Origin: Octopus vulgaris
Lineage: Eukaryota
DNA length: 64,000 bases
Assembly (NCBI GenBank): GCA_951406725.2
Contig: OX597819.1
Location: forward strand, 75,206,001 to 75,270,000
Direction: 5' to 3'
Part shown: piece by piece, positions 2,760 through 64,000 of the stretch
Layout: every line of letters starts with the position of its first letter
Numbering within the stretch: position 1 is the first letter of the stretch
Notes under the pieces: generated by a model
What the model was told of the DNA's origin: nothing
The model's input: the letters and a program-made list of their open reading frames with translations, nothing else
Databases searched by the model: none
Made by a program: the position numbers and the translations under genes

Positions 2760-3330
2760 TAGTTAGTGGTGGCGATGACGGAGGAGGAAGAGGAGTAGAA
2801 GGAGGAGGAGGACAATTTACGCAGCGCAAAATAGTTCCCACACGAAGCGATACCATTTACTTGTCGTTGCTTTGGTCACAAATTATAAATGAACTCCTGA
2901 CAACATCTCTTTGGTGATTTCTTTTGATGTTTTTTTTGTGAAATCTGCGGTTGGGCTTAGGTTTGATTTTACTTCTCCGAAACGGTTTGTATATTTCAGT
3001 GGAGATAGAAATAAAGAGCCTCCGAACTATTTCTCGTCGAAACCTTCCACTCGTCCGGTGGGCGCCATCTTAAGTCACACGGAAGCACGGTCCAGGAGGA
3101 GTGAGGCGCCGGTGGACAGTTCTCTGCGTTAAATATTTCACACCTTTCAGGATCTGGTGCATTGGAAACATACTAAATAACTATCGGCGAATTGGAAGAT
3201 GGCGACTCAATTGCTTCCAATACGTTTTCAAGAGCATTTACAGGTAGGTTCTCTTGTTTAATTTAAACTGGCATTTTCATACCACTACAAAATTCAAGAA
3301 AGGGGGCGGCCAGGCGAAAAAAATGTCTGA
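2760..3330. promoter_or_regulatory. CpG/GC-rich promoter of CHC, possibly bidirectional
   Basis: Local GC/CpG peak; YY1-type motifs CGCCATCTT (3063-3071) and AAGATGGCG (3196-3204) in opposite orientation; GC box GGGGCGG near 3303-3309. Confidence 0.7.
3199..3243 (+). CDS. CLTC: Clathrin heavy chain, coding exon 1 (MATQLLPIRFQEHLQ)
   Basis: ATG at 3199 in aagATGgcg context; translation matches the CHC N-terminus (human MAQILPIRFQEHLQ); ends CAG|gtaggt, phase 0. Confidence 0.96.
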
Positions 3331-28858: not shown

Positions 28859-29066
28859 CTCCAAAATGTTGGCATTAATGCCTCCAATATTGGGTTTAGT
28901 ACCCTTACTATGGAATCAGATAAATACATATGTATAAGAGAAAAGGTTGGAGAAACTGCTCAGGTTGTCATTATTGATTTAAATGATGCCACCAACCCAA
29001 TTCGCCGGCCTATCTCCGCTGACTCTGCCATCATGAACCCAGCAAGTAAAGTTATTGCATTAAAAG
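28859..29066 (+). CDS. CLTC: Clathrin heavy chain exon 2 ([69 protein letters not shown])
   Basis: Polypyrimidine tract + tttcag acceptor, 208 nt, donor G|gtcagt (phase 1); near-identical to metazoan CHC. Confidence 0.98.
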
Positions 29067-40038: not shown

Positions 40039-40188
40039 CTGGCAAAACTTTACAGATTTTCAATATTGAAATGAAAAGCAAAATGAAGGCACATACTATG
40101 ACTGAAGACGTTACCTTCTGGAAATGGATTTCAGTCAACACAGTTGCACTGGTTACAGATACAGCTGTATACCACTGGGGTATGGAAG
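40039..40188 (+). CDS. CLTC: Clathrin heavy chain exon 3 ([50 protein letters not shown])
   Basis: ttttcag acceptor, 150 nt, phase 1-1, donor G|gtaagt; contains clathrin-box site residues (human Q89, F91, K96, K98). Confidence 0.98.
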
Positions 40189-46961: not shown

Positions 46962-46979
46962 GACAAAATGGAGAAGCAG
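46962..46979 (+). CDS. CLTC: Candidate 18-nt alternative microexon of CHC (..ME-GQNGEA-GDSQP..)
   Basis: catcttcttacttacag|GACAAAATGGAGAAGCAG|gtttgt; multiple of 3, phase 1-1 as intron 3 requires, no stop; donor identical to that of exon 4. Confidence 0.6.
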
Positions 46980-55823: not shown

Positions 55824-55942
55824 GAGATTCTCAACCCCTAAAGATGTTCGATCGTCATTCAAGTCTTGCTGGATGTCAAGTCATCAACTACCGGACCGAT
55901 GAAAAGCAACAGTGGCTTCTGTTGATAGGAATATCAGCCCAG
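55824..55942 (+). CDS. CLTC: Clathrin heavy chain exon 4 ([40 protein letters not shown]); not in the ORF track
   Basis: ttttacag acceptor, 119 nt, phase 1-0, donor CAG|gtttgt; continues exon 3 in frame and matches CHC. Confidence 0.97.
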
Positions 55943-58619: not shown

Positions 58620-60024
58620 CATGGGGGAATTCAGTTAGAGAATGCATGGGTGAAAAGTCTCCCCAATGTAGGCGAAACAGAGGGACCTAGTACTATAGTT
58701 GACAGCAGTTTTATAGAGAAAGCAATTAAGGATATGAAGGAAGACAAAGCCTTTAGTCCATTACAAATTGCTACTGATATGCTCAAAGTATCTGGCAGTG
58801 TAAGGATATGGCCTAATTATTTGCATAGCCAATCAGGTTGTACAAGAAGCTGTCATACCCAGTAACTGATGTAGCCGCATTATAGACAGGGGTAAAGGAA
58901 ATAGAGATATCAAATTGCTGGACCAGGTCATGAACGTTACAGAAAGAGTTATTGCTCAACTCTTTTAATTAGGAAGAGAATTAGATTAGATAAGATGTAG
59001 TTTGGCTTTGTGCCAGTAAGAACTATTGATGCTCTCTTTCTAGTTAGGCAACTTCAGAAGTATTTAGCCAAAAGTAAATTGCTGTACATGGCATTCATGA
59101 ACCTAGAGAAAGCCTTCAGTGAAGCCTCTCATTCCCTGAACTGGTGGTCACTGTGGAAGCTAGTTGTAGATGAATAGCTATTGAGAGTTAGCATTTAATA
59201 CAGCAACAGCTTTAGTGCGTAAGTTTGTGTTCACTAGGGCTTAGTCCTTTCCTATTTATTACAATCCTCCAGACCAAAACAGGAGTTTTAAGACTGGGTA
59301 CTCATGAGATATCCTCTATACTGATGACCTTGTTCTTATAGCTGAATTTATAGTAGAATTAGAAAAGAAAAAAGCTCAGAGAGCTATTATTGCTGTTGGT
59401 AATGAAGGTCTCTCAGGATGAAAAGCAGTTTGTTTGATGCTTGTATGCAAACAGCAATGTTACATTGTAGTGAAACATGAGCTGTAAATGCAGAGGATAT
59501 GTGAGACTAGAAAAAAAGCAAAACTAACGTGTTCTGCTAGGTGTGCAGCATAAAGGAGTGCTGATCACCAAATGTGGCAAGGAACTATTGAAGAGGGAGA
59601 TCCAAGAATAAATGAGACAAAGTAATGAAGACCTCAGTTGTTGAGCCTCAGGGAAGAGATGACTGGCAGTTCACTGTGCTCAAGAAAATCTATCCATCTT
59701 AGCAAAGCATGGTTCTGTCTATGCTGTCCCTACAGTTCATCTCAGCACCCATCCTTCCATCACTGATCAAACTACAGCACTATTTCAGCTGTTGTAATTA
59801 TATGAGAGCAGAGATGCTACAAGTTCCCTCTCTCTTTGGAGTCTCCTCCCCTTGTCACCTACTCAGCATTCTCAATCTCATCTCTTACCACTGTGTTTTC
59901 CAGTGTATTTTTCTTTCACATTGGCCATCAATGTACTCCCTCCAGCTTTGTCACTCTCTTTCCATGTTCACACCTACTTACCTCTGATCTCCTCCCTTGT
60001 CATAGTGCACTCCTCCCTCTTCTT

Positions 60025-60067
<43 letters not shown>

Positions 60068-60690: not shown

Positions 60691-63340
60691 ATGTCACTCT
60701 CATTGAAGTTAGTGAAATAAATATAATAAATGCACTTCCATATGTCCAAATTTTACAAACAGTTCTCTTTTATTACATCCTTAAAACTTTGAAGTTATTT
60801 TTAAAATGACATGTCTAGAAACTACATTTTCCTCACAATTTTATTAGTTTCTTATAAATTTATTATGGATCTTATTTGATGCTATTAATTTTTGTTTATG
60901 ATAGATCTAAAGTAGTTTTCTGATACCCTGTTTTGAAATTCAATTTTTCTCAAGCAAACATGAGTGGGGGTGATACATAGTTTCAGTATTGTGTATTTTT
61001 AAGAATTTATGCATACATTAGGGAAACATAGGTTTACTTGTTTTTGTTTGTTCTTTTAGTGGAACTCAGAAAAGAAATTTAATAACTAAAAATATTTTCA
61101 ACTCTTTTCATTTTTTGGCTGCATTTAGTTCTTCAATGTACACTTCTGACCCATAGATGTTCCTAATCTATTTAGTTCTTATGTGTTATTTTGCTTCTTT
61201 TCTTTTAAATGAAAAAATTGCTTTGGTAGCTTGTCAACTTGCATTGACTAAAGGTTTTCTGCTTGTCTTTTGAAGGTCTCTTCTAATTCCCAAGTTAGAC
61301 ATGGTGTCTATGCATGTGATTTCAGTTCATTTTGTGTTATTGTTTAGTATATCCTGCTTTCATTGAATGTATGAGATGGTGATTACATGTCACTCAGTTT
61401 GATATATCTAACAAACTTTCAGGTTATAATTTCATGTACTATCAGTAACGCTCCCAGTCTTAATTTAAAACTTCGTTAACTTTTTTTGTTTCTGTAAAAT
61501 CTTATTTTAAACCATTAATAGTTTCAAATGCATTTATCTTTTTGTTATTGCTTTATAACATTTTTGTCAAGTAACTATAATCTGTAAAACCCAATTCAGA
61601 ATTATTTTTTATTAAAAAATTCATTATAGAAAATTTAATTTACATAACCAAATTTTTTCTTAAATGTTAGCTGCAGCTAAACTAAGTACTAATTCATTTA
61701 AAAGAATTAATACCATGTAGAATATAACATTTTTTTTACATCAAGGTTTTGTTTCATGTAAAAAAAAAAAAAATAGAGCTAATTAGTTATTCAAATTTCA
61801 ATGATTCTTTTTTTTTTTTATGTAAATAAATTACAGTCTCCCCCCACCCCCATCCCCCCAAAAATAGAATCTGGTGAATGACTTGAAACCAGTACTGACT
61901 TTTTAAACAGCATATTTATGGTACTACATCAATTTTGTAAAGTAATTCATGTTTAAACAATTTTTCAAAAGTACTTCAACATAGACCTAAAAAAAAAGAA
62001 ATAGATAATTCAAATTGCTATTGAATTGTAATTATTTTTAAGGAAAGAATTTACAACAATAATTCAGTATTCAAATCAGTCATTGTTAACATGTTGGTAG
62101 TAAAAAAAATCACACCAATCAAATTCTAGTTTCATTTTTATATGAATAAATTCACTAACACATTTGTTAAAATTATGATGTTGTAATTTTGAAATGTTCA
62201 GCCTTGTTGCTGAAAGCATTTAATAAATGTAAATTGACTTGAATTAGCAGAAAACTTTTCCCTTTTTTTTTGCCCCACTCAAACTTATATCTTTCAGTCA
62301 AATTCATTTTACATATTAGATTTAAAATGCATTAATTCACACAAGAGAAAGAATCCTATTTAAGCTATACATATTGATGCTTGCATTTTGAAACCATTTC
62401 ATATTTGGGTTTTGTTCTGTTAAAATTTAACCATTTATTATTTTTTTTACATAAAAGCCTTCCTAATCTGATTTTTATTTTATTTTATTTTAAGCTGTCT
62501 GGTAAGCACTCCCAATGATTATTGTTTGAAATTAAAAAGATAGTAAAAATATTCTGTATTACAGTTGAAGTGAAAATTTAAATTGCAACTCTATAATTGT
62601 AATTTAGAACCTAGTCTAATTGAGAATGGTTTTTAAAATTCTCATGCTGATGATTACTTGCGAATAAATTCTCAAGGTTATTTGACATATAAACATTGTT
62701 TTAGTCATGTAGTTCCAAATTTTTTTGGTTCAGATGAAAGTTTAACAAAAAAGTTCTGCAATCTATTGATTTAACTCCTCTATATTGAGTGATACAACAA
62801 TATTTGAAGAGGATTTTTTTCTTTTCTCAAACTGTAAAAAATAATTTTATTTATATATTGCAGTAAATGGGGGTGGGGTGAGCAGTAGAATGGTTTAGAG
62901 TTGCTCAAGGGATGTTTTCACTATTTCTTTTAATTGATCAATTATAATAATCAGAAATGGAGAGTGCATTGAGACATTTTATAATTTAATTAGTTCTGAG
63001 TTATATTTTGTTTTAAACTGTAGTTTTAATTTTAAAGTTTCTTTTATATTATATTCATTAAATGTTAATTTTCATTTATTGTAAATTAAGTTTATATTAT
63101 TAACTGTTAATTTAGAAAATTTAATTTTTACTTAATCATATAGCAAAAAGAAGCTCTCAAATAGCTGCAGATTAAAACAATTAACTTTATTATTTGTTGA
63201 TTTTTTTTTTTTTAAACAGCCAATTCACATCATTAGAGCTATCTTATAAGTGAAGGATTGATCACTGTACTTCGTTAAACTAATTTAAAACAAATATCTA
63301 AAGATTTATAAGAAATTGGAGTTCTGTTATTTGCTTTTAG

Positions 63341-63379
63341 GTAAATGCTGAAAACTCTGCTGTGACACCACCAACTCAG
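63341..63379 (+). CDS. CLTC: Candidate 39-nt alternative exon of CHC (VNAENSAVTPPTQ after ..ISAQ)
   Basis: ttctgttatttgcttttag|GTAAAT...ACTCAG|gtaaat; 13 codons, phase 0-0 as intron 4 requires, no stop; GC-richer than flanks. Confidence 0.6.
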
Positions 63380-64000
63380 GTAAATATGAGGAGGTTGGAC
63401 AGGGGAGCCTTCCAAAGCCTTCTTTTTTCCAAAGGATGCCTACCTACCTTACCTGTCCTAGCTATGAAATTTGGTATCACTCCAGCTATGTTCAAGCTGA
63501 TGTTTATAATCCCATACTAAATTAATGAAAAAAAAAAATTATAGATATTTTATGTTAAATGCACATTAGTCTTTCAATATATTTACATTGAGTATTACAT
63601 AAATTTACAATAATAGATAGCACTAATTCAAGATGAAATTTTGAAATATCTTGGTTTTGAAAGAAAATTTACTACTGCCATTAAGATTAAATGTTATTTT
63701 AATGAATTCAACTAACATTTGCCACTTGGAGATATGTTGGCAACTTTTTGAAAGTAAAGACAATGCCATAAGGTTGTGCAAGAAACTATGAGTAATGTGT
63801 TTGGGCAGTTATTCATTTAAAACAATTTAAGTTCTATTTTTTAAGCCTCAATTTTTTCTTTTAATTTAGTTTCCCTGTATTACCAACTTTTTGCTTAATT
63901 TTGCCTTTCAATTCCCTTTTGATATCATTTAAAATTTTTTCTTTTACATAAATTAGAGTTTATTAAATCTAAAAATGCTTGAGATCAGATCTATTATTTT

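Follow-up and report, generated by a model that had tools for sequence, protein, structure and literature searches.

The window analysed here, 64,000 nt of the 2.8-Gb genome of Octopus vulgaris (G000:C6:75206001-75270000), holds the 5′ part of the clathrin heavy-chain (CHC) gene. Using the window, 150 kb of adjoining DNA and a protein match, we mapped 33 junctions of the gene. In addition to exons 1 to 4, the window contains two optional microexons, exon A and exon B (Table 1; a slash in a motif marks the splice site). Exon B is a genuine alternative exon of the gene: the spliced coding sequence that includes it reproduces, letter for letter, the protein P0005, named by NCBI as isoform X1 of Octopus vulgaris/O. 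sinensis. It has canonical AG and GT sites, scoring 10.1 bits (acceptor) and 11.5 bits (donor) with leave-one-out weight matrices made from the gene's own 33 junctions, keeps the reading frame, and is flanked by long introns of 7.4 and 10.6 kb; the next constitutive exon starts 10,552 nt past exon B, beyond the window. Its length, coordinates, phase, freedom from stops, encoded peptide and upstream TGC are as the initial annotation, made from the sequence by a model, had given them. In the 18 kb from exon 4 to the next exon, exon B was the sole phase-0, stop-free candidate of 9-51 nt, and remained so with cut-offs 2 bits lower, while the same scan of intron 1 found no candidate in 25.6 kb.

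[quoted passage not shown]
Feature	Position	Strand	Remarks
Clathrin heavy chain exon 1, coding part	3199-3243	+	Junction mapping
Clathrin heavy chain exon 2	28859-29066	+	Junction mapping
Clathrin heavy chain exon 3	40039-40188	+	Junction mapping
Exon A, second optional microexon	46962-46979	+	18 nt, adds 6 aa; acceptor weak, 5.2 bits
Exon 4	55824-55942	+	Holds W-box residues Q152, I154, I170; donor CAG/GTTTGT, 8.3 bits
TGC (UGC), candidate eMIC/Srrm234 element	63332-63334	+	-9 of exon B acceptor
Exon B, optional cassette	63341-63379	+	39 nt, phase 0-0, stop-free, encodes VNAENSAVTPPTQ
Exon B donor CAG/GTAAAT	63377-63385	+	11.5 bits; same 9 nt as donor regenerated at the exon 4-exon B junction (11.8 bits)

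The intron that holds exon B had been described as apparently repeat-free, which is wrong; it carries a dispersed repeat at 58620-59380, with at least 56 genome matches of about 70% identity on many contigs, and a (CA)19.5 tract at 60026-60064. The dispersed repeat is degenerate and, by eye, resembles a retroelement remnant. The exon's own surroundings are clean: positions 63241-63700, with exon B inside, had no other match in the DNA of the same genome that was compared, and a repeat origin of exon B was rejected on this ground. The 120 nt immediately 3′ of exon B (63380-63500) have a GC content of 45%, against 24-25% in the surrounding intron, and may be a regulatory element. RNA structure predicted for exon B with 100 nt downstream was not above shuffles (z -0.35), and the RBFOX motif TGCATG was absent near both exon B and exon A. 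The six 5′ introns of the gene, which runs from window position 3199 to L006:632, are 6.8-25.6 kb long and the later introns are all below 3 kb; both optional exons lie in the long-intron part.

Isoforms in cephalopods

Exon B had been called hidden; it is in fact already part of NCBI isoform models, in Octopus, Argonauta and Sepia. Among 21 cephalopod proteins covering the junction, taken from annotated models and Logan contigs and leaving out one fragment, P0138, in which the junction is not covered, the insert is present in 14 and missing in 7. It is found in CAI9724428.1/XP_029637476.1 and CAI9724429.1/XP_029637477.1, in O. bimaculoides XP_052824427.1, in Argonauta hians GAB1609867.1 (E to D) and in Sepia pharaonis CAE1279183.1 and CAE1279180.1 (N to I), and is skipped in CAI9724427.1/XP_029637479.1 and CAE1279185.1. 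The suggestion of an alternative CHC isoform is thus borne out, as the included and the skipped forms both exist in annotated models and in Logan contigs. Logan contigs of 5.4-5.8 kb (Sepia cluster, decapod-like cephalopods) encode the whole protein with the insert and are, therefore, spliced transcripts; exon B is included in 65 of 75 decapod-like Logan contigs (15 of the 16 cluster members listed). The Octopus and Sepia inserts are of equal length and identical in 12 of 13 residues, and the T-P dipeptide, a putative phosphosite, is retained in all 14 insert-bearing cephalopod proteins. Octopods and decapods split approximately 270-300 million years ago. By these sequence comparisons, exon B is conserved from octopus to cuttlefish.

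The insert of exon A (GQNGEA in octopus, GQNGEP in Argonauta, GPDDHT in decapods) was found only in cephalopod proteins, in 5 of the 134 scored. All four combinations of exons A and B occur among Logan proteins (63, 7, 3 and 2 contigs, with 15 of the 16 cluster members listed). No TGC lies within 40 nt upstream of exon A. Five YCAY words occur in the 200 nt upstream of it.

A regenerated donor at exon B

Joining exon B to exon 4 recreates a donor, CAG/GTAAAT, to which exon B contributes its first 6 nt and which at 11.8 bits is stronger than exon 4's own donor (8.3 bits). Of the gene's exons, 15 of 33 start with GT; the regenerated junction scores 11.8 bits for exon B and from -2.2 to 5.6 bits for the other 14. 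Two further introns of the gene have the same CAG/GTAAAT as their real donor. The scores come from a gene-specific matrix of 33 donors of one gene rather than from MaxEntScan, and GTAAAT is frequent among the donors here; on this scale, with the gene's real donors at 2.8-14.3 bits, the 11.8 bits lie above the lower bound, reached by about 90% of real donors, that is used to define donors of recursive-splicing (RS) exons. None of 7 included Logan proteins showed the N-to-S change that A-to-I editing of the regenerated donor's +5 position would cause.

The layout with a strong regenerated donor, that of a putative RS-exon, is reported for 1.7-4.9% of human exons (PMC6224609). Human RS-exons are described there as mostly repressed by the EJC, so that a regenerated donor can stay silent. 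The Ubx exons m1 and m2 are expressed RS-exons, and competition between donors decides the outcome in several fly genes, although not in all; in several fly reporters inclusion was not predicted by donor strength alone (PMC8605326). Judged from its sequence, exon B has the layout of an expressed recursive-splicing exon.

We also compared the junction in metagenome loci (the best 80 of 162 confirmed). In 30 of the 80, which come from closely related animals and are thus non-independent, tandem donors 15 nt apart follow directly after exon 4, in the form CAG/GTAGG..GTACAG/GT (VGDVQ). Transcripts L021 and L022 carry the 15-nt extension, and P0260 of the same group is without it. Tandem donors of a second, VNAGE type, CAG/GTAAATGC..GAG/GTAAAC, were present in 3 of the 80 loci (L083, L090 and L092); no transcript with the VNAGE extension was seen. 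On a quick tree, L021 and L022 grouped with Helobdella (support 99), and L092 fell into a broader group that is annelid-like (92) and nested in a lophotrochozoan clade (99). The tandem donors at the annelid junction thus make donor competition a natural mechanism in a related phylum. The first 10, 8 and 10 bases of the extensions of L083, L090 and L092, respectively, are shared with exon B, and exon B may have derived from an annelid-type tandem-donor extension; we offer this only as a suggestion, because a match of 8-10 nt is partly donor consensus.

Inserts at the same junction in other invertebrates

A search centred on the junction, together with cluster listings, gave 230 distinct long proteins, 76 of which bear an insert, a tally that is biased because the search query contained the insert. 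The inserts are optional, 3-18 aa long and nearly always acidic, and occur in bivalves, abalone, annelids, sea spiders, sea urchin and amphioxus. Both forms are annotated in Lytechinus pictus (10 aa), three Branchiostoma species (9, or 18 by duplication), Haliotis (5), Pecten, Argopecten and Mizuhopecten (6, or 12), Mytilus (6), Ostrea and Saccostrea (6, or 11), Gigantopelta (4) and Pycnogonum (3), while in Helobdella (5 aa) and Nymphon (3 aa) only the insert-bearing form was seen. From molluscs, annelids and sea spiders to sea urchin and amphioxus, the inserts sit at the same junction and differ in sequence and length. D or E is present in 28 of the 29 distinct inserts, K in 2 and an aromatic residue in none; 9 have S/T-P and 15 begin with Val. 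Those of bivalves and sea urchin start with T or I and, therefore, cannot regenerate a donor, so that this mechanism is not common to all. No insert was found at the junction in 54 vertebrate rows, nor in the listed models of heterobranch and caenogastropod snails, heterodont bivalves and hemichordates, whose genes may differ from the models. The junction is likely a recurring place to tune coat assembly.

Several inserts are stacked or duplicated: TGAEAA+TGPEAA in scallops, VAQSPSSDT twice in B. lanceolatum, and TGAEGG+MSADS in oysters (P0308, P0314, P0292, P0293 and P0335). Apparent inserts of 31-52 aa in short metagenome ORFs were discarded as read-through introns.

Position of the insert in the terminal domain

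In an alignment with solved mammalian clathrin chains, the last residue of exon 4 falls at their Q173. The key residues of the W-box, an adaptor-binding site of the terminal domain, are F27, Q152, I154 and I170 (PMC8805674), and V177 has also been named as a W-box residue (PMC11543927). The 13 residues of exon B are thus placed between W-box residues I170 and V177, exactly where the initial annotation had set them. An AlphaFold2 model, built on a 37-row alignment and covering residues 1-377 of the included form, gives residues 174-189 a pLDDT below 50; they lie between two confident strands, 165-173 and 190-199, which form a hairpin. The modelled fold matches clathrin terminal domains, the model being of modest quality (rmsd about 6 Å to solved domains; mean pLDDT 72.9), and the exon B loop is predicted to be disordered or flexible. 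The first strand ends with I170 and the second begins with V177, so that the hairpin bearing both residues is made longer by the loop. Q152, I154, I170 and V177 are unchanged in all 76 insert-bearing proteins, and are invariant in the insert-less group too. The W-box faces the membrane within the coat (PMC7480105), and we infer that the loop crowds the membrane-facing rim of the pocket and leaves the pocket residues intact. This may matter little, because mutants of the W-box reportedly function fully in cells (PMC7480105).

Discussion

The reading that we favour, tentatively and at a little under an even chance, is that exon B is a conserved cephalopod CHC exon that encodes a flexible loop on the W-box rim, is kept or dropped by competition between two identical donors, and weakens or gates the access of adaptors. 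In the first step, exon B would be joined to exon 4; a tissue factor such as Srrm234-eMIC may define the exon with the help of the UGC. In the second step, use of the regenerated donor would lead to skipping, and use of exon B's own donor to inclusion, as in Ubx m1 and m2. The loop, small, polar and acidic, would leave the pocket residues untouched and crowd the rim, and so would likely weaken or gate adaptor entry to the W-box pocket. In annelids, an insert at the same junction is made by tandem donors with no intron between them.

A possible, though less probable, explanation is a neural microexon of the ordinary kind: Srrm234-eMIC would act on the UGC to bring about inclusion in neurons, other tissues would skip the exon in one step, and the GTAAAT start would be irrelevant. 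The UGC microexon signature that had been proposed holds in part. A TGC at this distance is uncommon, being present at 2 of 33 true acceptors (exon B included) and 2 of 38 intronic pseudo-acceptors; a UGC between the branch point and the AG is reported for 74-79% of human SRRM3/4 microexons (10.1101/2024.09.17.613571). The genome encodes an SRRM_C domain (PF15230, eMIC-type; 32.6 bits against a cut-off of 27), and the eMIC has been traced to bilaterian ancestors (PMC8797185). Neural exons also recur at equivalent positions across bilaterians (10.64898/2026.09.05.749416). Other features of eMIC targets are absent: in flies, these exons combine long AG-exclusion zones with UCUC tracts and acceptors that are very weak, whereas the AG-exclusion zone of exon B is 17 nt, among the three shortest of 33, TCTC does not occur, and the acceptor is mid-range at 10.1 bits. 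In addition, exon A, the other optional microexon, is without a TGC, most decapod-like contigs include exon B, and the best regenerated donor of the gene is left unexplained. Cephalopod sequencing may lean to nervous tissue, and the odds are about even that inclusion of exon B is enriched there. Exon definition by eMIC and subsequent donor competition are compatible, and the two mechanisms can act in series.

The exon encoding SRRM_C lies at L097:1499-1650 (G000:C25) and is a candidate for the 3′ part of Srrm234.

Somewhat more doubtful still is a reading in which exon B is included broadly, or with a bias to muscle, and lies in a surface loop that tolerates inserts, adaptor binding being little affected; inserts would have arisen repeatedly at an old phase-0 intron because the hairpin accepts them. 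The high inclusion in decapod-like contigs is consistent with this, as are the differences between lineages in insert sequence, length (3-18 aa) and mechanism, the tandem duplicates of Pecten, Argopecten and Branchiostoma lanceolatum, the muscle regulation of the described vertebrate CLTC microexons (PMC7480091, PMC13676984), and the reported redundancy of terminal-domain binding sites (PMC7480105, PMC8805674). However, octopods and cuttlefish keep the length and 12 of 13 residues, many lineages retain skipped forms within the same species, and the composition of the inserts is narrow (28 of 29 acidic, none aromatic). Furthermore, in what is a biased sample, the other loops of the terminal domain rarely bear inserts, the exon 2-exon 3 junction excepted. 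A chance pseudo-exon or gene-prediction artefact is barely credible: the NCBI isoforms are automated models, but exon B is the unique candidate in 18 kb, the models of four named cephalopod lineages contain it, and so do Logan contigs that have no introns and show lineage-specific substitutions.

Several known systems resemble exon B in part. Like exon B, microexon 31 of vertebrate CLTC (21 nt; PMC7480091) and microexon 33 of rodent Cltc (38 nt; PMC13676984) are short optional CHC exons that diversify the coat protein; these, however, are muscle-regulated and lie at the C-terminal end (31 in the trimerisation domain), whereas exon B belongs to the N-terminal propeller and is placed beside an adaptor pocket. 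With Ubx m1 and m2 (51 nt; PMC8605326) and annotated mammalian RS-exons (PMC6224609), exon B shares a short, in-frame exon, long introns, and a 5′ end that regenerates a strong competing donor, but in exon B, a putative RS-exon, the two donors are identical over 9 nt. With SRRM3/4 and Srrm234-eMIC microexons (PMC8797185; 10.1101/2024.09.17.613571), it shares shortness, a kept frame, a UGC near the AG and an eMIC-type domain in the genome, but differs in its short AG-exclusion zone, lack of UCUC and acceptor that is not weak. Type I convergent alternative exons (spg/DOCK3-4, syd/SPAG9; 10.64898/2026.09.05.749416) occupy an equivalent intron position in more than one phylum, beside an interaction surface. 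The CHC inserts, which may be of common or of convergent origin, share one junction across phyla and also lie beside an interaction surface; unlike Type I exons, their recurrence mixes tandem donors with cassette exons.

In a full-text literature search, mainly of papers outside subscription journals, exon B was undescribed, the CHC microexons returned were C-terminal vertebrate events only, and we found no described mollusc case of recursive splicing. Exon B is thus apparently annotated in databases yet undescribed in the literature, and the surprise is limited because automated annotations already contain it. The regenerated donor, exon A, the recurrence across phyla and the database listing of the isoforms had all been missed by the initial annotation. 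Torres-Mendez 2019 is reportedly an eMIC study with octopus included. Exon B might already be listed there or in the supplements of 10.64898/2026.09.05.749416, a preprint that covers octopus, amphioxus and sea urchin and defines exons recurring at equivalent positions; its main text gave no hits for clathrin.

The purpose of the W-box is unsettled, and so is the reason why the terminal domain retains several adaptor sites that seem redundant. Natural isoforms from at least five phyla, in which the pocket is intact and a rim loop is present or absent, offer a direct test of binding and coat assembly. The locus may, in addition, exemplify the transition of one regulated insert from tandem donors to a recursive cassette exon. 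An extended scenario, which we consider improbable as a whole, is that invertebrate bilaterians have an old gate in the W-box-rim hairpin, controlled by splicing and lacking in vertebrates. An ancestral tandem-donor extension, kept in annelids, would have become the coleoid recursive cassette once an intron fell at the proximal AG/GT, and the tissue-switched acidic loop, together with the second microexon, would give four adaptor-selecting terminal-domain isoforms, for instance at cephalopod synapses.

At the exon 2-exon 3 junction (29066/40039), close to the clathrin-box residues T87/Q89, a longer form has about 9 extra residues in models of Mya, Mercenaria, Dreissena, Ruditapes and unionids (P0184, P0186, P0187, P0343-P0348 and P0350), which are without the W-box-loop insert. 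Branchiostoma has 3 extra residues at this junction.
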